Source: Candidatus Thorarchaeota archaeon (lineage in GTDB: Archaea; Asgardarchaeota; Thorarchaeia; Thorarchaeales; Thorarchaeaceae). Taken from it: 43,223 nucleotides of DNA. The DNA is taken from positions 1-43,223 of the forward strand of contig JBHLRZ010000028.1 in NCBI GenBank assembly GCA_048882045.1. Direction: 5' to 3'. A program made the position numbers and the translations under genes. Shown here one piece after another: positions 8,480 to 20,785 of the stretch. The notes below the pieces were generated by a model. It had not been told where the DNA came from. It saw only the letters and a list, made by a program, of their open reading frames with translations, and ran no database searches. Each line of letters opens with the position of its first letter. Position 1 is the first letter of the stretch.

Positions 8480-9187
8480 TCAGTGTAGCTCGTATCTGAA
8501 CTCATTTCCAGCAGCCCATTGCAACTCAAGAACTTGATCAGGTTCCATTACAATAGGGGCGACTCCTTGGCCAAATTGTTGGATATATTTTGAGAACTTC
8601 TTGGTATCCTCTTCTGAGGTCCATCTCATTGGAATTCCAACTCTTGGTTTAGCGTCAATACAAAGACTCACTGCATCCTTGACTGGAAACACCCCATCTC
8701 CACCAACTGGTGTGATTAGAACATCCATCTCCAAGTGCTCGAATGGTCCTCGGATTATGGTGTCTCCCAAGTATCCGACCTTCATATCACCGATCTCAAT
8801 ATAGAGACCGAGATTCTCCATTCGCTCTCCTCCCTCTAATCTTGAGAGGGCGTAAGGCACGATCTTTACATCAGGAATCTCATAGGGTATTTCTGGCTTG
8901 AGCTCATGAAGCAACCAGGGTTTGACACCCTGTTCTGTGGCTTTCTCACCAGCACCCTTGTTCCCAAGGAACCATGCCTTTGAGTTCACTGCAATGGTTG
9001 CCGCATTTCCAACAGCATCGTCTGCTTCATTCGTTGCAACCACAACCCTGGCTGTGAAATCATCTGGAACGACCTTTTCACCGTCCCAAATTCCTGGATT
9101 CAAGAGAATCACAGTCTCATTGAATTCCAGTACAAATGATGTCTTACCAAAGTATGTTATCTTGAGCAACGAATCACTTCCCGTCAA
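8480..9187 (-). CDS. Metallo-beta-lactamase-fold protein (UPF0173-like) lacking metal-binding His residues
   Basis: Fold pattern LKITYFGKTSFVLE...ILLNPG...G-LYIE...VGYLGDT...DVLITPVGG...A....AKPRVGIPMRW. The HxHxDH motif reads TNEADDA. TTG start is uncertain. Confidence 0.75.
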   Translation of the reverse strand: MTGSDSLLKITYFGKTSFVLEFNETVILLNPGIWDGEKVVPDDFTARVVVATNEADDAVGNAATIAVNSKAWFLGNKGAGEKATEQGVKPWLLHELKPEIPYEIPDVKIVPYALSRLEGGERMENLGLYIEIGDMKVGYLGDTIIRGPFEHLEMDVLITPVGGDGVFPVKDAVSLCIDAKPRVGIPMRWTSEEDTKKFSKYIQQFGQGVAPIVMEPDQVLELQWAAGNEFRYELH

Positions 9188-9387
9188 TATGTACTGGTTC
9201 GGTCTGACCAGTATGATTGCTGCAATAGATTCCTGAAGATGTTACTAATAAGGTAATTTCCCATCAATGCTATTTCTCGCCGATTAGAGAGCGTTTTGAT
9301 TGGTTTTCCAAGAACTCAAAGTGAACGAGTGGTATCTTTTTATGACGTGAACAAGACTCTGTTCCAGAGGTCCTACCATTTATTGTA

Positions 9388-10701
9388 GTGTGTAGAGAGT
9401 TGAGTTCTATGCTCGAGAAGATTCTCACAGAGAAGTTCAGACGAACACTGAAGATGATCTTCACAGACATAACTAATCAACAGGATCGTAGAGATGAAGA
9501 AGAGTTTTCCAGAGACGAAGTTCGAATCAAGGAAACACTCCTGGACACCATTGAACCATTCCCCTCCGACATAATACTCGAACAGGACTTTCGTGTCGCT
9601 GCTGTTGATGGTTCTGGAACTGACAGTCTTATGACACTTGATGATATCCGAATCCATTTGCTCAGTACTTCCACAATCGTTGTTGATACAAACACTCACT
9701 CTGAGAATCTGTTCTCTCCTATTCAAAGGGAATATCTCGAGGATGAGATTGGAGAACAACCTCACATAGACATTCACTGGCACTCCGGAGTTCGTGGAGA
9801 TGCTCGTAAGAAACTTGCAGAAACCCTCGCTAATATCTATCCCTTAAAAGACGTTGCCAGTTTAACGCTACCTTTTTTCACCGACTACACACGAGGGAAG
9901 ATATCCTCATTCTCTGACTTCGCTGGAACAGATTATGAAAAGGATGTACCACGATTGAGGGATATTGAAACGCTGATATCTCGTGAACAGTTATTGACCA
10001 ATCCAATAGTCCATGAAGAGATACGAAAGGTTAGTGAATATGCCGCAGCTCGTAAACTCTTGATGAGTGATATTCAACCCAAGTATCTTCTCTTAGATGG
10101 AGCTTTGTCAGTTTTCATGCACTTCGTTCGACATTATCCTTCCATGCCAAGTGGATTCATGCTCAGAGAACTCTGTGCACTAGCACGACAAAAGGATGTC
10201 ATCATATGTGCAGTCAGCAAAAACCATACAATACCTTTCGCGCATCGCATAGCAGGAATGGCCCGAGATGTGTTTGGGGACAATGCTAAGTGGTTTTGCC
10301 ATTTACCAAGTAAGGAAGATCCTGATGGAGGTCTCCATATCTATGAAGATCGAACCTACATTCCTCCTATGTTGGCTGTCCCTTACCTATACAGTTTCTC
10401 AAGGGACAACAGACCTTCTAGGATAGATTTCGACCGAATCTGGTGGCTTGAGAACATCTTTGTCCCTGGCGACCCCAAAGCAACTCGCGCAAATGAGAAG
10501 TCACTCTTTTCTGAGTTAGAGTTTATGTCACGTGATGCTCGATGGTATGGATATCCTGTACCACTTGCACTGGCTCATGAATCTTGCAAGTTGAGCTATG
10601 AAGACTTGAGATTAGCAAAAGAAGTATGCATGGATGTTCGATCTGAAATGGGTCTTGAAAAAAGGAAGGCTCAGGATTTACGTGCTGATTATGATATGTA
10701 A
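9388..10701 (+). CDS. nurA: NurA 5'-3' nuclease
   Basis: VAAVDGSG; E in the RKVSEY helix; LLLDGAL; AVSK; GYPVPLALAHE. First gene of the herA-mre11-rad50 cluster. True start may be 9409 or 9454. Confidence 0.88.
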   Translation: MCRELSSMLEKILTEKFRRTLKMIFTDITNQQDRRDEEEFSRDEVRIKETLLDTIEPFPSDIILEQDFRVAAVDGSGTDSLMTLDDIRIHLLSTSTIVVDTNTHSENLFSPIQREYLEDEIGEQPHIDIHWHSGVRGDARKKLAETLANIYPLKDVASLTLPFFTDYTRGKISSFSDFAGTDYEKDVPRLRDIETLISREQLLTNPIVHEEIRKVSEYAAARKLLMSDIQPKYLLLDGALSVFMHFVRHYPSMPSGFMLRELCALARQKDVIICAVSKNHTIPFAHRIAGMARDVFGDNAKWFCHLPSKEDPDGGLHIYEDRTYIPPMLAVPYLYSFSRDNRPSRIDFDRIWWLENIFVPGDPKATRANEKSLFSELEFMSRDARWYGYPVPLALAHESCKLSYEDLRLAKEVCMDVRSEMGLEKRKAQDLRADYDM

Positions 10702-10713
10702 CCCGAGGAATGA

Positions 10714-12486
10714 ATGATGAGTATTGATAAAGACAAACTTGGAGAACTATATGGAAAAGTAGGTGCTGGAAACCAAAACTCACTTGGCATCATGGGGAGT
10801 AATCGTGATGTCAGTGTAGGAGAAATCTTCCTAATCTATTCCAGTCGCGATAATCATGAACGTGTATTCTTTTTCAGAGTCCTCGGGCTTGAAAACTATC
10901 TTCGTCAAGTTGACGACCTCGCACGTGTAGCAGGTACACTCATGGTGGAAGGTGACGCTTATCTGTCTGGTATTGAACGAAATATGTTACTCTCTGTCGG
11001 CGGAAGGATGTTGGGTTATGCAGAGAGAAAGGGTGATCAATGGGTTTTCAATTCTCCCAGAAGACTCCCGGATCATCTGGCATCTGTATATCGACCTGTT
11101 CCCGGTACATCTGATGAGAATGTCCGAAATATGTTAGAATGTCAAACTGATGGTCAGGTGTATGTTGGTGACCTCCAAGTTGGTGAGAAAACACTCGACG
11201 TTCCTATCAAGATTCCATCAAAATTTCTACCAATGCATGTTGGTATCTTTGGATCTACTGGATCTGGAAAGAGCAATCTAATGATGGTGCTCATCAAGTC
11301 AGTCATCGACAATAATTTGGATTCTTACAGAAGCCCAAAAGATGGCTCTCAGAGGATATCTGCTTTCTGTATAGACCCACATGATGAGTTTGCAAAAGGA
11401 GTTGACAAGTACGGAATTCAGAATGTAGTAGAAGATATGAGCGTGTCAACAAGAAAAGAGGTCATTGGCGACTTCTATTACCTTACAACACATAAGAAAG
11501 CCACAACTCGGGAAATTAGAAAGTACTCCCTTGAAATCAGAATTCTCTGGTCTGAGATTCAACCAAGGGACCTCTACTCAATACGCGAATTCACTGCAGA
11601 GATGACCTCTTTCATTGACGCCCAATATTCTTCACACGGCGAGAATTGGATCTCCTCTATTCTTAAGATGAATGAGGACGACGCAGATGTATCTAATGTT
11701 CAGAAAGGTACTCTTCGAGCTGTAAAACGAAGACTCAACTTCCTCGAAAGGTCTCCTATCTACATAGAATCTGGAAACTCAATTCTGGGAGATATTTTTG
11801 AAGCGATGGAAACAGGAAGAATCTTCGTTGTGAATACCAGCCTGATGAGTGACAGAGAGCAATTCCTCCTCACAACAATAGTCACTCGAACGTTGTCAGA
11901 TATGAGAAGAGCTCTCAAGAGTAGTGGTAATCTAGGCGACTTCGAACGTCAAGGTCAGATGCGCTTGCCATCATCTTTCTTTAGTAAGGTAAAGGCTCGA
12001 GCACGCTCTTTCTATGGCTATGGGGGAGTTGATAATGACACACCAGTACAGGATCCCAAAGATCTCCCAGTCATTCAGGTTACTGTTGAAGAAGCACCGT
12101 CAATTCTTAATCCTGAGTTAATGCGTGGTCAATCAGTTTTCAAGGATATCTCTCGTCAAGGACGCAAGTTCAACATTGGCCTTCTCGTGGTGAGTCAACA
12201 GGTGAGTGTCCTTGACAACGTAATTCTCAGTCAGATGAATACTGAGATCAACCTTCGACTTGGCAATGAAAGAGAGATCAGGGCTGCAATAGAAAACGCG
12301 AGTGTTAATATCTCGGGATTTGAGAACGAGTTTCGAGTCATGTCGCGTGGCGAAGCAATAATGACTCAGTCGTATCGAGAACTTCCGCTCCCAGTTCGAA
12401 TTCCTCTCTTTGATGATGTCTACGAGAGAGACAAGAACAAATACAAGGATTCGCGGACTAAGAAGGACGAGGAACACATACTCTGA
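10714..12486 (+). CDS. herA: HerA bipolar helicase/translocase
   Basis: N-terminal HAS-barrel-like region; HVGIFGSTGSGKSN Walker A; IDPHDEF; VEEAP Walker B; RQGRKFNIG arginine finger; SQQ; SQMNT; GEA. Confidence 0.92.
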   Translation: MMSIDKDKLGELYGKVGAGNQNSLGIMGSNRDVSVGEIFLIYSSRDNHERVFFFRVLGLENYLRQVDDLARVAGTLMVEGDAYLSGIERNMLLSVGGRMLGYAERKGDQWVFNSPRRLPDHLASVYRPVPGTSDENVRNMLECQTDGQVYVGDLQVGEKTLDVPIKIPSKFLPMHVGIFGSTGSGKSNLMMVLIKSVIDNNLDSYRSPKDGSQRISAFCIDPHDEFAKGVDKYGIQNVVEDMSVSTRKEVIGDFYYLTTHKKATTREIRKYSLEIRILWSEIQPRDLYSIREFTAEMTSFIDAQYSSHGENWISSILKMNEDDADVSNVQKGTLRAVKRRLNFLERSPIYIESGNSILGDIFEAMETGRIFVVNTSLMSDREQFLLTTIVTRTLSDMRRALKSSGNLGDFERQGQMRLPSSFFSKVKARARSFYGYGGVDNDTPVQDPKDLPVIQVTVEEAPSILNPELMRGQSVFKDISRQGRKFNIGLLVVSQQVSVLDNVILSQMNTEINLRLGNEREIRAAIENASVNISGFENEFRVMSRGEAIMTQSYRELPLPVRIPLFDDVYERDKNKYKDSRTKKDEEHIL

Positions 12487-12495
12487 GGGATATGT

Positions 12496-13809
12496 TTGAC
12501 CAGAATCGCACACATTTCTGACACACACCTTGGTTCCAAACCAAGAGCTGGAGTCAGGCACAATGTGTGGGGACAGGAAATGCGCTCACAGCTTCTTGAA
12601 AACGACTTCTATGAGCGTTTTGAAGAGTTGTTTGACATCATTGCCAAACTTGACCCGCCAGTTGACCTCGTTGTACATTCAGGTGACCTCTACAACTCGC
12701 CATGGGAGGGCAATCCTTCCCAACCTCCAGTAGTAGCTCAGGAAACTGCGATTAGGGTGCTTCAGAATTTCATTCAAGAAACTGGAATCCCTGTTCTAAT
12801 AATTGAAGGAAACCATGGGTTATACAGATTATTGGAAGTTTCACTTCTCGATACGCTGAAGTTGGCAGTTCCTGGACTTGATGTAGCAACTCAGCAGGAT
12901 TTGAAAGAAGCCATCCGTCAAGACATACCGCTCATACGGTCTTATGACAAGCTCGATGTCTTTTGTTTTCCATTTATCGACCATGCGGTCCTAGAGAAGA
13001 CAGGTGACATGTTAACTAAGTATGATGACTGGATCACTTCGAATCAAACACGGGATAATAACAAGCAAACCATAGCAGTAGCTCACGGGATGGACATTGA
13101 TCACACGCTGCACAAGAGCATCTTCACAATGGACTATGACTACATTGCATTAGGACATGACCATCATCAACACAAACACTCAGCAAAAGCGTGGTATGCA
13201 GGGTCTCCTGAACGATGGAGGTTCGATGAGATTAAACATGACAAGGGTTTCATCGTCGTTGACATACAAGGAGCAGGACAGGAACCAGTTGTTACACCAA
13301 ATATTCTGACATTTGACCGTCCAGTAGTCAGCGACAGAATCACTCTTGATTCGGATGATACTGTTGATTCGATTACAGAAAGAGTGTTTGAGCTCCTAAA
13401 AGGACTAGGTCTTAAAGAGGCGTGGAATCCAAAGACTGCTGCGAGATTGAGATTGATCATAGAGGGAACATCCTCTCGAATGACGTCATTTGAGCTCGGT
13501 CTGGCTCTTGAATCGTTGCGGATGAAGACACTCTCGAAGGAAACTGAGTATAACGTTGCTCAGTTCGTATGGTTTGTGCGTCAACACGGTGAGAAAGAGT
13601 TCACCTCTGCTGCTTACCCTGAAATCGAATCAGAGTATCTTATTCAGGACCCCGAGGAGGACTTCCAAGCCTACTTGGGAACTTTGGAGGTCGATAATAC
13701 TCTCGACACATCAATGCTCACGAAGATTGCAGTTCGGTCATTAGAGTATGCAGTGGGTAAACTTGAAGGAAAGATGACCTCGGAATCAATAGCGGAGGAT
13801 GAGCAATGA
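12496..13809 (+). CDS. mre11: Mre11/SbcD nuclease
   Basis: All five phosphoesterase motifs: HISDTHLG, SGDLY, EGNHG, VAHG, ALGHDH; also YAGSPE and KGF. Overlaps the rad50 start by 4 nt (ATGA). Confidence 0.92.
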   Translation: MTRIAHISDTHLGSKPRAGVRHNVWGQEMRSQLLENDFYERFEELFDIIAKLDPPVDLVVHSGDLYNSPWEGNPSQPPVVAQETAIRVLQNFIQETGIPVLIIEGNHGLYRLLEVSLLDTLKLAVPGLDVATQQDLKEAIRQDIPLIRSYDKLDVFCFPFIDHAVLEKTGDMLTKYDDWITSNQTRDNNKQTIAVAHGMDIDHTLHKSIFTMDYDYIALGHDHHQHKHSAKAWYAGSPERWRFDEIKHDKGFIVVDIQGAGQEPVVTPNILTFDRPVVSDRITLDSDDTVDSITERVFELLKGLGLKEAWNPKTAARLRLIIEGTSSRMTSFELGLALESLRMKTLSKETEYNVAQFVWFVRQHGEKEFTSAAYPEIESEYLIQDPEEDFQAYLGTLEVDNTLDTSMLTKIAVRSLEYAVGKLEGKMTSESIAEDEQ

Positions 13810-15884
13810 AGATCCTTCGTTTGAGGATTCGTAACTTCAAACCATTCAGAGACCTCTCTCTTCCAGAAGAAGATACTGACTTACCAGATGGACTCATCCT
13901 TATCGAGGGGCCAAATTCGACTGGTAAGTCCTCCCTCTTTGAAGCAATCCTCTGGGGTCTCTGGGGAGCAGAGTCAGTCACACTCACGAATGACGAACTA
14001 ATCAGTTTTGCATCAACACATTGCCAAGTCATTGTCACCTTCCAAGTTGCTGGTACACAATACAAGGTAGATCGTTCTTACAATCCAGCTGACGGTATGG
14101 CTGTTGTTCTTTTCACGAAGAAAGGAAATGCCTGGAAACGGATTGCTGACAAGAGTCGATCTGTAGCGACCAAACTGGATGAGGTTCTCAGCCTTGATCT
14201 GAAACAAGCATTAAGCACACTACTAGTCCGCCAAGGGGAGGTTGCAGTCATTGCAAATGCTACACCCACAGTACTACGTAATCTCCTTGTTGAGGTATAT
14301 GGCATTGACCTACTTCGACGAATGACTGGGCATCTTGAAGAGCTAGAGAATGACCTTAAGATCAAGATTGACTCTCTCAAGATGGACTATCAACGACCTG
14401 AGCATATCCAAGAACAGATTATTGAATATCAAACACGAATCAAAGAACACAAGAAGTCTCAGAAACTGAAAGAGAAGGAGCTTAGAACCAAAGAGAAGAA
14501 TCTCAGCTCCCTACCTGATATGGATTCAATCAAGCGAATCCACCAACTGAACAGAAACTTGGAAACACAACAGAAAGAGATTGAAACCTATACACAACAG
14601 CTTGACAAAGATCTCGCGCAAGCTGGACTAGTTAGTGTCAGTGAGAAGACGATTGACTCCCGACTAGAATTTCTGAAACTTGAAACATCTCGGATAAAAT
14701 CAGAGAAGAAATCATCAGAGAAATCCATGCAAGAGCTAGATCGTGAGATTGGGAAGTTTGAAGGAACAAGAACCGATCTTGAGGAAAAGATAGCGATTCT
14801 TGAGTCCGCTGGAATAGATGATATGATTGAATGTCCCACCTGCTCTAAACCACTAACAGGTGCTGAAAGAAAGAAGCTCATCTCCGAATACAGAGTTACA
14901 ATCAAAGACAGTCAATCTAAAAGGGGAGAACTTGAAGAACAAAGAAACCAGGTTCAAGCCGCCTCCAAATCATATGATGATAGAGTACTAGAGATCTCCA
15001 GATCCATCGATGCAGCAGATCGTGCTTCAAAGACTCAGAAAAAGATAGATGAAACCCAGAAAGATGCTAAAGAAGCAGTTGCGGCACTCACAGAAATCCT
15101 GCAGAGTTACAAGGTAAGGACGATTGACGGTCTTCTACAGAAACACCAAATCGGTAGTGTTATGGACCTACAAGGCATGGTGGAGCGACTTGATGAATCT
15201 ATTAGCTCCTTGAAACGTGATATTGAGCAAACAAACGAGAACATTCTTCGCGAGGAGATTCTAATCTCGGAGTTGGAAGGAAAACAGTTTGAGATGGAGA
15301 AACGAGGAAAGGACATAGATGAGCTAGAGAGCATTAGTGAGCACACCAAGTATGTTCGACGGAAACTTGTCAACGGCTTTGTGACCGACTTTGTGTTTCA
15401 AAAGCGATTAATTGGTATAATTCGTGGGGCAACCAATTCCTATGTCCAATCATTTACGAATGAGCAATATACAAGCATTGATCTGGAACCTACAGCCGCC
15501 AAGGGCCGTTCTGGGTCGGGATTGATACTTCGAATATGGGATGAACGTGACAAGGCTTGGAAAAAGACCTCACAGCTGAGTTTTGGAGACCGTACTGCAA
15601 TCAGTCTGGGTCTCAGATTGGGTATTAGTCGTACAATGAGTAGTATTCGCCCATTGAAAGATAGTCCTGTTGTGATGCCCAGAGTACGAACAGTCTTACT
15701 TGATGAACCACTTGGAGGATTGGACAAACTCCGACGCGAAGCTGTTGTCAGAAATCTCGTCAATGACCAGAGCTTCGAGCAGATTCTACTGATTACTCAT
15801 ACAGATGTCCAAGGCTGGGAAGGAGTTCCAGTCATAGAGGTTTCAAAGACTGGCACAACGAGTAACGCCATATTGAAGATGTAG
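13806..15884 (+). CDS. rad50: Rad50/SbcC SMC-like ATPase
   Basis: IRNFKPF; Walker A GPNSTGKSS; Q-loop VRQGE; coiled coils with central Zn hook CPTC; signature LSFGD; Walker B/D-loop LLDEPLGGLD; H-switch ITH. Confidence 0.92.
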   Translation: MKILRLRIRNFKPFRDLSLPEEDTDLPDGLILIEGPNSTGKSSLFEAILWGLWGAESVTLTNDELISFASTHCQVIVTFQVAGTQYKVDRSYNPADGMAVVLFTKKGNAWKRIADKSRSVATKLDEVLSLDLKQALSTLLVRQGEVAVIANATPTVLRNLLVEVYGIDLLRRMTGHLEELENDLKIKIDSLKMDYQRPEHIQEQIIEYQTRIKEHKKSQKLKEKELRTKEKNLSSLPDMDSIKRIHQLNRNLETQQKEIETYTQQLDKDLAQAGLVSVSEKTIDSRLEFLKLETSRIKSEKKSSEKSMQELDREIGKFEGTRTDLEEKIAILESAGIDDMIECPTCSKPLTGAERKKLISEYRVTIKDSQSKRGELEEQRNQVQAASKSYDDRVLEISRSIDAADRASKTQKKIDETQKDAKEAVAALTEILQSYKVRTIDGLLQKHQIGSVMDLQGMVERLDESISSLKRDIEQTNENILREEILISELEGKQFEMEKRGKDIDELESISEHTKYVRRKLVNGFVTDFVFQKRLIGIIRGATNSYVQSFTNEQYTSIDLEPTAAKGRSGSGLILRIWDERDKAWKKTSQLSFGDRTAISLGLRLGISRTMSSIRPLKDSPVVMPRVRTVLLDEPLGGLDKLRREAVVRNLVNDQSFEQILLITHTDVQGWEGVPVIEVSKTGTTSNAILKM

Positions 15885-18142: not shown

Positions 18143-19614
18143 TATGGAGTGTGACAATGATGGAAGTGCGAAATAGACTACTGACCTTACTTCGAAGTCA
18201 CATCGTTCTCATACTGATTCTCATTGCTAGTTTCATCGTCTGGACAGTAGTTTTCAGTCTTGCAGCTCAAGATTTCCTAGTAAGTGGCACGAGACCTTTC
18301 CGGTATTCATGGGATGGAATTGGCCAGTTCGAGCTGTTTGGTTGGACGATAAATTATGAATTCGAGGGCTATGTCGATTATGACTTCTATTATCTCACTT
18401 GGGCCGACCAATTCCTTAACGGAGTTATACCCTACACCGATGCATTCAATCAAGCGAATTTTGATGGCATTGACTACAACACTCCTTTCTTCCTCCCACC
18501 ACTTTTCCTATATCTATGCGTTATCGGGGCATCAATGGGTCCGTTGGGTCTCGGCTTCTTGATCTCTGTTTTCGGTTTTATCACGGCATTTCCTGTTTAT
18601 GGTATCTCAAAGTATCTATCCAAGAAGAAACGAATCGCTGAGATTTCTGTGGCAACATATCTGCTCAATCCATTAGTTCTTTTCCAGACAACCTACAAGT
18701 GGATGAACCCAGCACCATTTGTCTTCTTCACAACTCTAGCTTTCTATCTATTCATGAAACAGCGGAGGTTCGAAGGCACATTAGCGATTACAACAGCCAT
18801 CTTCTTCAAACAGATAGCAATCTTCTTCGCACTACCCCTCATAGCATATCTGATCAAAAAGCCTCCTAAAGATGTGCAGGAGGATAATCAAGCCATTAGG
18901 GATGGGAAAGGGAATCTGTTAAGTGACTATGTTGATCTGAGGAGTTTTGCGAAAGTTATAGCTGTCATAGGAGTCTTTGCTGTTCTACTCTCTCTTCCAT
19001 ACATCCTTGATTTCCGTAACTACCTCTATTACATGTTAGAACGACCTGGAGCTGTACTCTATGATGACTTGACATCACTTCCTGATTTCGGCACACCGAT
19101 AACTTTCACAGCACTCCTAATATTGCTGGGTGCACCCGAAGGACTGTCTGCTCTCTTCAATGTGGGAATTTACTACACTCTGTTCCTCCTTCCTGGTGTC
19201 ATTGGTACACTGGGTCTTTGCCTCTTCGAAGAGAAAGATGACAGGAATCTTAAGGGTTACTGGAGGAAAATCTTCTATCTGACCTTGCTGTTAGTATTCT
19301 GGTTACATATCTTTTCACCGCGAGGTATCTACAAGTATTACTTAGTCGCAATCATTCCTTTGATCTCTATACTCTCTTCCAGTAGTATGATGAGAAGTGA
19401 AACTACAAAGGTTAACGCATCAGTTTCGATGATTGTAAATCCGTTCCTGATTGGTCTGCTCATTCTTTTCCCAAGTAGACATGTCTACCTTACACTTCTG
19501 GTTTTGATGATGTTGATGTACCTACTACACAAACAGTTGGCAGAGGTGAATGGTATGATTGGTGCGAGGATACGTCTTCTGAGAGTTAGACTGATCTCTA
19601 AGAAGGACTTGTGA
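18139..19614 (+). CDS. Polytopic GT-C-fold glycosyltransferase, tandem paralog of the upstream gene
   Basis: EGYVDYDFYY...PYTDAF...LPPL; TYLLNPL; MNPAPFVFF; AIFFKQ; RGIYKYYL, collinear with the upstream protein. Real start is probably ATG 18157 or 18160. Confidence 0.75.
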   Translation: MIWSVTMMEVRNRLLTLLRSHIVLILILIASFIVWTVVFSLAAQDFLVSGTRPFRYSWDGIGQFELFGWTINYEFEGYVDYDFYYLTWADQFLNGVIPYTDAFNQANFDGIDYNTPFFLPPLFLYLCVIGASMGPLGLGFLISVFGFITAFPVYGISKYLSKKKRIAEISVATYLLNPLVLFQTTYKWMNPAPFVFFTTLAFYLFMKQRRFEGTLAITTAIFFKQIAIFFALPLIAYLIKKPPKDVQEDNQAIRDGKGNLLSDYVDLRSFAKVIAVIGVFAVLLSLPYILDFRNYLYYMLERPGAVLYDDLTSLPDFGTPITFTALLILLGAPEGLSALFNVGIYYTLFLLPGVIGTLGLCLFEEKDDRNLKGYWRKIFYLTLLLVFWLHIFSPRGIYKYYLVAIIPLISILSSSSMMRSETTKVNASVSMIVNPFLIGLLILFPSRHVYLTLLVLMMLMYLLHKQLAEVNGMIGARIRLLRVRLISKKDL

Positions 19615-20785
19615 GATTTTCCAGTTCTTTCTGCTTAGAGTCCATCTTCTTCTTTAGACTCTTGATTCGTGCATCCAACTTCTCGACCTGTTCCTTGAAA
19701 GTGTCATCTGGCATTGCACCAGTCCCATGACGATCCTCGATGTGTTTACGAATTTGTTCAACAGACTTGAGCTCTTTTTTAAGAGCCTTCAAATCTGACT
19801 CTATAGCTGTAGTCTTTGTTTCATCTGCAGTCTTGAACTGCTTTGCTGGAATCATGACGCCGAACTGCTGTTGCGTTTTCTCTGCAAAGTCTTGGAACTG
19901 GTCCCTAAGCATCTCTACATTTTTGTCCACATTGGTAACCTGCTCCTTTACCTTAGAGATGTCTTTCTGCAGGTCAAAGACTGCATTGACCAACCTCTTT
20001 AGAGTCTGCTCAAGCTCCTTCGATACAACAGTATCTACTTCTTTTTCCCTCTCATCCTCGTCTTTCTTCTGTTCTTTCGCAACAGAACTTGGTTTTGTTA
20101 ACTGAACATCTCCACTCAGCCATTTGAAAGCGTTGAGGGCAAAGATGGCATTGCCTTTATGTTTCAGTCCGCCACCCTTACGAAAAATCTCATAACTGCC
20201 TACACACATCACTCGACCCTTACCTGGTTCAGCTATGGCGACAACTGAGGCACTCCCTGGGTCTGCAGTATCTGACGTGACAGCAAGTGATGTTGCCTTT
20301 CCGGTCACCTTCAGACTGCATGCGGAAGGAACTAGCAGGTCTTTTACATCTTCAGTCGAGGGATGGGCAACGATGTCCGATACGAGTGGCATCGTTGGCA
20401 AACCTGCATTGTTACGATCATCCTTCACAGCTGTGTTTTCAAATGTGATTCCAAATTCTGATGAGATCTTGGACATGTTGTTCATGAGTCCGCGATCTCC
20501 CCCAGATAGTGAAAGGAGTAATAGGCCTCCTCCGTTCTCCACGTATTTCTTGAGAACATCAATTTCAGCAGGTCTGACCTTCGAGCTGTTCGGACACCCA
20601 AAGACGATTACAGAAGCATCCTTGAGATTTTTGGCAAGGATCATAAACTCAGTATAAGCCTCGACATCAAAGTCGTTGTCTTTGAGCAATTGCCCCAGTT
20701 CAGAGTAAGTACTATCTAGTCTACCTCTCTCATTCTGTGTCTGATCAAAGAGGATCTTCTTTCTCCTGCCGCTCAAGATGTTCAC
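19598..20785 (-). CDS. GIFT-domain (IFT52/GldG/DUF4350-like) protein with C-terminal coiled coil
   Basis: KILFDQTQNE...YSEL...IVFGCP...EIDVLKKYVENGGGLLL...GGD...EFGITFENTAV...GKGRVMCVGS.EIF...N..FALNAFKWL, then about 150 aa of heptad-rich helix. No signal peptide. Confidence 0.8.
   Translation of the reverse strand: MNILSGRRKKILFDQTQNERGRLDSTYSELGQLLKDNDFDVEAYTEFMILAKNLKDASVIVFGCPNSSKVRPAEIDVLKKYVENGGGLLLLSLSGGDRGLMNNMSKISSEFGITFENTAVKDDRNNAGLPTMPLVSDIVAHPSTEDVKDLLVPSACSLKVTGKATSLAVTSDTADPGSASVVAIAEPGKGRVMCVGSYEIFRKGGGLKHKGNAIFALNAFKWLSGDVQLTKPSSVAKEQKKDEDEREKEVDTVVSKELEQTLKRLVNAVFDLQKDISKVKEQVTNVDKNVEMLRDQFQDFAEKTQQQFGVMIPAKQFKTADETKTTAIESDLKALKKELKSVEQIRKHIEDRHGTGAMPDDTFKEQVEKLDARIKSLKKKMDSKQKELENLTSPS

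Follow-up and report, generated by a model that had tools for sequence, protein, structure and literature searches.

Why would an archaeal genome carry a gene for a relative of the IFT52 head, by which IFT-B1 and IFT-B2 are joined in every cilium, and what might its product do? The question arises from a stretch of 43,223 nucleotides (hereafter the window; contig JBHLRZ010000028.1, assembly GCA_048882045.1) of a 3.6-Mb Thorarchaeota metagenome-assembled genome that is 93% complete, in which a gene on the minus strand encodes a protein, here called P0001, with an N-terminal GIFT domain. This GIFT domain is homologous to the IFT52 head. With modest confidence, we favour a reading of P0001 as a soluble cytoplasmic scaffold or adaptor, built from the IFT52-type head, a linker, a coiled-coil stalk and a terminal helical hairpin.

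The GIFT domain and its family

A sequence-only reading of the window had proposed that the first part of the protein tracks IFT52 along the whole domain, and profile searches bear this out. The best Pfam family for P0001 is IFT52_GIFT (PF23355), with an E-value of 1.1e-13 and 51.3 bits for a cut-off of 27.2. DUF4350 (PF14258) reaches 31.8 bits, barely above its cut-off of 30.4, and ABC_transp_aux/GldG (PF09822), at 20.4 bits, stays below its cut-off of 34.7; ThuA also ranks below IFT52_GIFT. In a phmmer search of all PDB sequences, the top three matches are Chlamydomonas and mouse IFT52 chains (E 4e-10 to 3e-6), and the bacterial cytosolic relative 2GK3 appears at E 0.67. A hidden Markov model (HMM) of 61 Asgard family members aligns IFT52 at positions 3-225 of its 228, with scores of 82-118 bits.

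An AlphaFold 2 model of P0001, built from a 57-sequence alignment, has a predicted local distance difference test score (pLDDT) of ~98 over residues 9-225. Foldseek, the comparison that had been suggested as a check, places the IFT52 N-domain first (E 1.7e-20, TM-score 0.80-0.92), followed by OST48/Wbp1 (2e-11) and by GH42 B-domains, ThuA-like proteins and STM3548 (~1e-8). Superposition with VIA-align yields Z-scores of 31.3 and 30.3 for IFT52, at a root-mean-square deviation of 2.0-2.2 Å over ~220 residues, 20-22 for OST48 and 15-18 for the remaining families. With PF23355 and PF14258 above their curated cut-offs and a fold superposable on a solved GIFT structure, P0001 belongs to the GIFT superfamily.

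The protein had also been described as having neither signal peptide nor transmembrane segment, unlike GldG-type GIFT proteins, and hydropathy confirms it: the maximum Kyte-Doolittle mean over 19 residues is 1.1, and no segment reaches 1.6. Because it has no hydrophobic segment, P0001 is predicted with confidence to be soluble and cytosolic; this feature and the PF09822 score below the cut-off place it outside the GldG-type extracytoplasmic group.

Comparison with known proteins sets IFT52 apart as the nearest characterized relative. IFT52 (OSM-6/BLD1; IFT-B1 core; PDB 5FMR, 5FMS, 8BD7) has the same fold over the whole domain at 23-26% identity, the domain being N-terminal and cytosolic in both proteins, and the two have in common E74, the glycine pair at 85-86, GG[DE]....N (95-103), G190, G196 and W222. 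The second-best structural relative, OST48/DDOST/Wbp1 (PDB 6EZN_G, 6S7T_G; 15-18% identity), is a luminal, membrane-anchored subunit of oligosaccharyltransferase and far more distant than IFT52; among the 25 families listed for P0001, Pfam DDOST_48kD has no match at E <=1. DUF4350, GldG/ABC_transp_aux and the secreted Asgard multi-GIFT proteins are members of the same superfamily, and in profile-profile comparison the cytosolic Asgard group lies nearer to the secreted Asgard-type set (387) than to IFT52 (211). Those prokaryotic proteins carry a signal peptide or a membrane anchor and are often large and multidomain, whereas P0001 is soluble and has just one GIFT domain, located at residue 1. 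STM3548/STM1381 and the ThuA-like proteins of the GATase1-like type (PDB 2GK3, 3SOZ, 1T0B, 4JQS) are likewise cytosolic and of the same general fold, but their sequence relation to P0001 is marginal and they have no coiled-coil tail.

Searched exhaustively, a set of 1.84 billion representatives yielded 809 matches at E <=1e-3. The ~70 representatives above 100 bits lack a transmembrane segment, start their GIFT domain at residue 1 and continue into a charged helical tail of 100-340 aa, and the matches below 100 bits are mostly multidomain proteins bearing a signal or a transmembrane segment. Named family members come from Lokiarchaeota/Promethearchaeota, Helarchaeota and the 'Asgard group'. 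Matches to PF23355 above the cut-off occur in 263 of the 301 Asgard genomes sampled (87%), including 84 of the 90 high-quality ones, and in none of 14 control genomes. The cytosolic GIFT family is thus old and present in nearly all Asgard archaea, and P0001 is its orthologue in Thorarchaeota. The query genome also contains seven further GIFT matches, in open reading frames (ORFs) of 638-1471 aa that score 18-30 bits with PF23355, versus 49 for P0001; five of these were examined, and all five have hydrophobic segments. The PF23355 model is not specific to Asgard archaea. In the ESM Atlas, clusters bearing it also occur in Thermodesulfobacteriota, Aquificota and Thermoplasmatota, and 41 of 251 Desulfobacterota genomes (16%) exceed the cut-off, at 27-45 bits and mostly within ORFs of 450-870 aa.

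Prokaryotic GIFT domains have reportedly been known since Beatson and Ponting in 2004, and PF23355 already labels these Asgard proteins in precomputed annotations. Our literature search found no paper in which Asgard archaea are connected with IFT52 or the GIFT domain, and the cytosolic Asgard family is undescribed in the literature found. A reciprocal scan of 185,000 prokaryote genomes with an IFT52 profile returned only two contigs of 1.6 kb, JARLIC010000146.1 (L014) and JAAEMK010000394.1 (L015/L034), from bins labelled Paceibacterota and Desulfobacteraceae. Both are 46-50% identical to algal IFT52, in exon-like pieces between stops, and are almost certainly eukaryotic contamination; the scan was discarded as uninformative about prokaryotes.

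Tail architecture and the proposed scaffold

Behind the head, the sequence-only reading had recognized a charged linker leading to a coiled coil that ends in a helical hairpin, and the same succession is found in the model (Table 1). K, R, D and E make up 41% of the tail. The heptads of the stalk helix are unbroken, with core hydrophobics amounting to 81% at a/d positions versus 13% elsewhere, and its 3.5-residue periodicity was reached by none of 2000 shuffles. In the break that follows the stalk, G309 and P313 are invariant among 43 orthologues and I312, K315, Q316, F317 and T319 nearly so. Such invariant tail residues suggest specific contacts beyond those of a generic coil. The orthologues of P0001 fall into more than 120 clusters at 69-99% identity, every one named Thorarchaeota or Asgard, and so many clusters at or above 69% identity, taken together with the many invariant tail residues, indicate strong purifying selection.

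The terminal hairpin carries the motif L..[YF][IL]...[YH]..G.[IL]....[YF]..Q..KL, kept among members that are only 20-30% identical overall. A hairpin profile compared with 177,635 PDB sequences ranks 8WHN first (E 0.002), which is the cytoplasmic domain of OST1/ribophorin I from the Lokiarchaeon MK-D1 (PMC11417166). Ranks 2-5 are held by four yeast entries for the Vps28 N-domain, part of the headpiece of ESCRT-I (endosomal sorting complex required for transport I), at E 0.013-0.017 and above generic coiled coils. The 8WHN domain contains two copies of the G-x-[IL]-x4-[YF] hairpin module. Pfam scans of 23 individual hairpins match GvpG in 12, SHOCT in four (best E 0.0013; PF09851 cut-off 27 bits) and VPS28 in four, all below the cut-offs. 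The hairpin of P0001 has a helix-G-x-[IL]-x4-[YF]-helix motif in common with its candidate relatives, which are SHOCT, the GvpG C-terminus, the Vps28 N-hairpin and Asgard OST1.

The same module recurs in four unrelated ORFs of the query genome (C25:13532-13699, L030; C33, L031; C1, L032; C45, L033): as a tandem pair at the C-terminus of an antiporter-like (cation/proton) protein, N-terminally in a zinc-ribbon protein, and in two small coiled-coil proteins. Its location at protein termini agrees with the description of the SHOCT family. Since unrelated proteins carry it at their termini as well, the hairpin may be viewed as a modular association element, and a promiscuous module of the SHOCT-like type would be the parsimonious interpretation.

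The Vps28 matches bring up a narrower possibility, in which P0001 is an ESCRT-I-like subunit whose layout copies that of Vps23/Vps37 and whose hairpin packs with other hairpins, Vps28-N-like or steadiness-box-like, into an ESCRT-I-type headpiece, bringing the GIFT head to sites of membrane remodelling. We consider this highly improbable. In addition to the PDB ranks and the four VPS28-matching hairpins, VPS28 is the top Pfam match of the tail of P0123, a homologue 43% identical to P0001 (E 0.001; 19.4 bits, cut-off 24.5), with Vps23_core at E 0.019, and a similar C-terminal hairpin is present in P0309, a protein of the ESCRT locus of the query genome. However, P0001 itself has no VPS28 or Vps23_core match, every score lies under the curated cut-offs, GvpG and SHOCT match equally or better, and the top PDB match is the OST1 domain, the motif also being found in the antiporter-like, zinc-ribbon and small coiled-coil proteins. 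An hhalign comparison of the P0001-family hairpin with that of P0309 is not significant (E 0.12), and the GIFT gene and the ESCRT locus are on different contigs. Given the sub-cut-off scores, the hhalign result and the promiscuity of the module, specific ESCRT-I membership of the hairpin is unsupported.

The ESCRT locus itself, on contig C46 (L027, 7526-10234), is interrupted by the contig end and consists of the P0309 gene, a convergent Snf7-family ESCRT-III gene and the MIT-domain start of a Vps4-like gene. P0309 (521 aa) carries a zinc finger at its N-terminus, matches bPH_3 weakly and has at its C-terminus a hairpin that resembles a steadiness box (Vps23_core E 0.095). Two further ESCRT-I candidates, taken up for weak Pfam matches, were set aside: an ORF at L017 is not Vps28-like by hmmscan, and a Snf7 gene on contig C41 stands isolated and has no ESCRT-I neighbours.

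If P0001 is a scaffold or adaptor, its head would most likely act as a protein-docking surface. The IFT52 GIFT domain is non-enzymatic, does not bind sugar, and docks on the tetratricopeptide repeats (TPRs) of IFT88 and on the IFT57/38 coiled coil (PMC4818760; PMC9753473); because that domain docks a TPR solenoid and a coiled coil, a docking role may be proposed for the archaeal head by analogy. The disordered linker of ~25 residues would tether the head to the stalk and let the heads reach their partners, and the stalk and the terminal hairpin would most likely drive self- or hetero-oligomerization. An oligomer of this kind would display two or more GIFT heads on one stalk.

Several observations weigh against this proposal. 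The IFT52 patch that contacts IFT57/38 is formed by K130 and R204 (PMC4818760; PMC9753473), which align with T131 and A179 in P0001. In all Asgard groups the first position is T/S/N and the second A/T/S/V, and in IFT52 they are K in 10 of 10 and R in nine of 10 sequences; since the partner-binding residues of IFT52 are not conserved in P0001, the analogy points to no binding site. None of the neighbouring genes is conserved as a partner throughout the family loci examined, and conservation of the gene neighbourhood stops outside Thor-like lineages. Finally, the retained residues C156-S157, H141, D122, D97 and N103 could mark a ligand-binding or catalytic site, in which case the description of the protein as a non-enzymatic scaffold would be wrong.

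This last point leads to the alternative that the Asgard GIFT domain is catalytic or ligand-binding through C156, H141 and D122, with D97 and N103, and that the coiled coil only oligomerizes or localizes it. Among 57 members at 20-30% identity, C156, G96, D97 and N103 never vary and H141, S157 and D122 hardly do; C156 is present in all 22 members of the query clade, and the fold is of the class I glutamine amidotransferase type. C156-S157, H141 and D122 are also common in secreted GIFT domains. IFT52 has lost the set, with A, K/V/Q and R at the positions equivalent to C156, H141 and D122, respectively, and the P0234-type paralogue introduced below has replaced these residues as well. On the other hand, the stretch equivalent to the canonical nucleophile elbow reads LSLSGGD and contains no Cys, the invariant C156, H141 and D122 lying elsewhere in the sequence, and the nearest solved relatives (IFT52, OST48, STM3548 and ThuA-like proteins) are not known enzymes of such a type. 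We therefore regard an enzymatic or ligand-binding P0001 as unlikely and retain the scaffold interpretation.

Descent of the IFT52 head

The sequence-only reading went on to propose an archaeal precursor of an IFT-B-like scaffold. Part of this stands, in that a genuine cytoplasmic IFT52-type GIFT protein is present throughout Asgard archaea, and part does not, only the head domain being common to P0001 and IFT52. The central, proline-rich domain of IFT52 that binds IFT88 and IFT70 (PF23352) is absent from P0001, and none is found in the 93%-complete genome at E <=0.1. The C-terminal IFT46-binding domain (PF21178) has no match in P0001, whose C-terminus is instead the coiled coil and hairpin; none was found genome-wide either, a weak result since the control genomes gave no match. 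P0001 also lacks the K130/R204 patch, keeps C156, H141 and D122, and stands in no IFT context. It is not an IFT52 orthologue and not part of an IFT-like machine.

The head may nevertheless bear on the ancestry of IFT52. A tentative proposal, which we hold at somewhat less than even odds, is that a cytosolic Asgard GIFT family, or a paralogue within it, was the source of the IFT52 head at eukaryogenesis, so that the Thorarchaeota protein would be a surviving relative of a pre-ciliary IFT-B1 core scaffold. The head would then have been inherited vertically from a family already serving as a coiled-coil-associated docking scaffold, a step that we likewise put forward as possible rather than probable. 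IFT52 and the Asgard family are both cytosolic, the GG[DE]....N motif is complete in IFT52 and the cytosolic Asgard clades and only partial in secreted domains, and 87% of the Asgard genomes sampled, versus 16% of those of Desulfobacterota, have a PF23355 match above the cut-off. With an HMM made from eukaryotic IFT52 only, the query clade has the highest median of the sampled prokaryotic groups, at 61.5 bits (P0001 63.5), followed by the Helarchaeota-type clade (48.5), P0234-type proteins (46.9), the secreted set (43.1) and the best 20 Desulfobacterota fragments (36.8). In profile-profile comparison with IFT52 the scores are nearly equal, at 211 for the query clade, 195 for the Helarchaeota-type clade and 193 for the secreted set, which tells against the proposal, as do the PF23355 clusters that the ESM Atlas holds from Bacteria and Thermoplasmatota.

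Trees were inferred with FastTree for 148 domains and with IQ-TREE (LG+G4) for 90 and 72 domains, on ~220 sites; they do not include OST48/Wbp1 or the broad bacterial GIFT families, a point that also counts against the proposal, and bacteria are thinly sampled, three of 20 Desulfobacterota fragments being full-length. With both programs IFT52 forms a single clade (support 100) placed amid cytosolic Asgard domains, and all five maximum-likelihood (ML) or FastTree analyses put it with cytosolic Asgard rather than secreted or bacterial GIFTs. Three small bacterial GIFT proteins group with the secreted set. The ML sister of IFT52 is not the query clade but P0234 (ultrafast bootstrap 99), a protein of 366 aa from a 660-kb Asgard-like contig, and with six P0234-type proteins in the tree the grouping has an ultrafast bootstrap of 94. 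The P0234-type, with a distinct tail of its own, turned up in only five of 11 genomes of one Asgard family. At one locus (L009), a single case, the P0234 gene (10001-11101, plus strand) is divergently paired with a gene for an Arf/Ras/Roc-family GTPase of 344 aa (8751-9785, minus strand).

This sister relationship is itself a weak point of the proposal, the P0234-type proteins being long-branched and restricted to that one Asgard family. IFT52 forms a long branch, the stems of IFT52 and the P0234-type measuring 1.0 and 0.87, and once the P0234-type is removed IFT52 shifts, with weak support, to another long-branched pair within the broad clade of the query. Because of these long stems, the low IFT52 score of the P0234-type and the shift upon its removal, long-branch attraction is suspected. 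Branching with the secreted DUF4350/GldG proteins, the outcome which the sequence-only reading had set against its own proposal, is not what the ML trees give, but the approximately unbiased (AU) test does not reject a grouping of IFT52 with the secreted set (delta lnL, the log-likelihood difference, 11.8; p 0.40), and the profile-profile scores separate the two sets little. Neither does it reject IFT52 with the query clade (delta lnL 12.2, p 0.42) or outside all cytosolic Asgard GIFTs (delta lnL 21.9, p 0.27); indeed, no placement at all is rejected (p 0.27-0.68). That IFT52 descends from the cytosolic Asgard family may thus be called the best-fitting reading of the sequences, one whose alternatives all pass the AU test. 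The query orthogroup is not singled out as the nearest relative of IFT52, and ~220 sites are insufficient to settle its ancestry.

Gene, locus and implications

The N-termini of orthologues read MSGRRKK in consensus, matching a TTG codon at 20776, and because they do so the true start of P0001 is probably this TTG, giving 392 aa; a 99%-identical database protein is also 392 aa long. Coordinates of the gene, its parts and other features of the window are given in Table 1.

Table 1. Positions of the GIFT gene, its parts and other features of the window
Feature	Residues	Position	Strand	Basis or remark
Whole GIFT gene (P0001)		19598..20785	-	395 codons + stop
GIFT domain	9-228	20102..20761	-	class-I-glutamine-amidotransferase-like alpha/beta fold, IFT52 type
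Retained C156-S157, H141, D122, D97, N103		~20317-20497	-	
Charged disordered linker	229-253	20027..20101	-	pLDDT <50 for 232-252
Coiled-coil stalk helix	254-308	19862..20026	-	~8 heptads; DSSP helix in model and heptad pattern
Conserved interhelix break GVMIPAKQFKT	309-319	19829..19861	-	helix break in model and conservation
Terminal helical hairpin	320-392 (320-355/360-392)	19610..19828	-	pLDDT ~95; turn HGTGAMPDD; SHOCT-like, Vps28-N-like
Polytopic membrane protein (GT-C-like), 491 aa		18139..19614	+	convergent; 3' end overlaps GIFT gene by 17 nt
Polytopic membrane protein, 736 aa		15932-18142	+	tandem paralogue of the 491-aa protein
DNA-end-resection block		9388-15884	+	437-aa ORF, HerA, Mre11, Rad50
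Giant ORF, 3570 aa		32450-43162	-	possibly longer, running toward the window end

The genes of the window stand in the order DEAD/MZB helicase, archaeosine-TGT-like gene, 437-aa ORF, HerA, Mre11, Rad50, two GT-C-like membrane proteins, GIFT, HIT, PCC and PolB. The GIFT gene is monocistronic, since it is flanked by the convergent membrane-protein gene on one side and by the divergent HIT gene on the other. At the locus of P0123, Rad50-Mre11-HerA is kept and a membrane-protein homologue (30% identity to that of the query locus, E 4e-66) is again convergent with the GIFT gene, with an overlap of 7 nt. PolB lies divergently upstream of the GIFT gene also in a genome of another Asgard family, and more distant family members have unrelated gene contexts. 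The synteny of Rad50-Mre11-HerA and PolB in other lineages, together with the wide occurrence of PF23355 in Asgard genomes, argues for an old, vertically inherited gene; synteny names no partner.

The convergent pair has suggested one further function, in which P0001, from the cytosol, regulates the neighbouring GT-C-like membrane proteins or aids their assembly, much as OST48/Wbp1 works with the GT-C enzyme STT3. The pair with its overlapping 3' ends is kept in the lineage at 30% (membrane protein) and 43% (GIFT) protein identity, and OST48/Wbp1 is the second-best structural match of P0001. Against this, convergent genes are not co-transcribed, and Rad50-Mre11-HerA is syntenic as well, so that the two genes may lie side by side through synteny alone. 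The other family loci examined (some with short flanks) do not show the pair, and the GIFT domain of OST48 is luminal whereas that of P0001 is cytosolic. We judge a role in glycosylation to be quite improbable, and a scaffold or adaptor remains the function that we favour.

Other parts of the window deserve brief mention. The archaeal DNA-end-resection block is complete and syntenic with the P0123 locus (L012); its 437-aa ORF, upstream of HerA, has no Pfam match and is possibly NurA-like by position. The tandem membrane proteins are paralogues ~37% identical to each other (tblastn), with DUF2079, below threshold, as their sole Pfam match; the label of GT-C glycosyltransferase comes from the earlier reading of the window. 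The giant ORF has no Pfam match at E <=1e-5.

Accounts of how IFT arose usually start from coatomer-like beta-propeller and solenoid proteins and from small GTPases; where the IFT-B1 hub IFT52 came from is discussed in none of the papers that our literature search found. Occurring in ~87% of the Asgard genomes sampled, the soluble IFT52-type GIFT protein is a candidate eukaryotic signature protein, and cultured Lokiarchaeia with homologues offer a tractable route to the function of the GIFT domain without a cilium. If the IFT52 head did descend from this family, part of the IFT-B core would predate the cilium, and its living archaeal relatives would allow the ancestral function to be studied.

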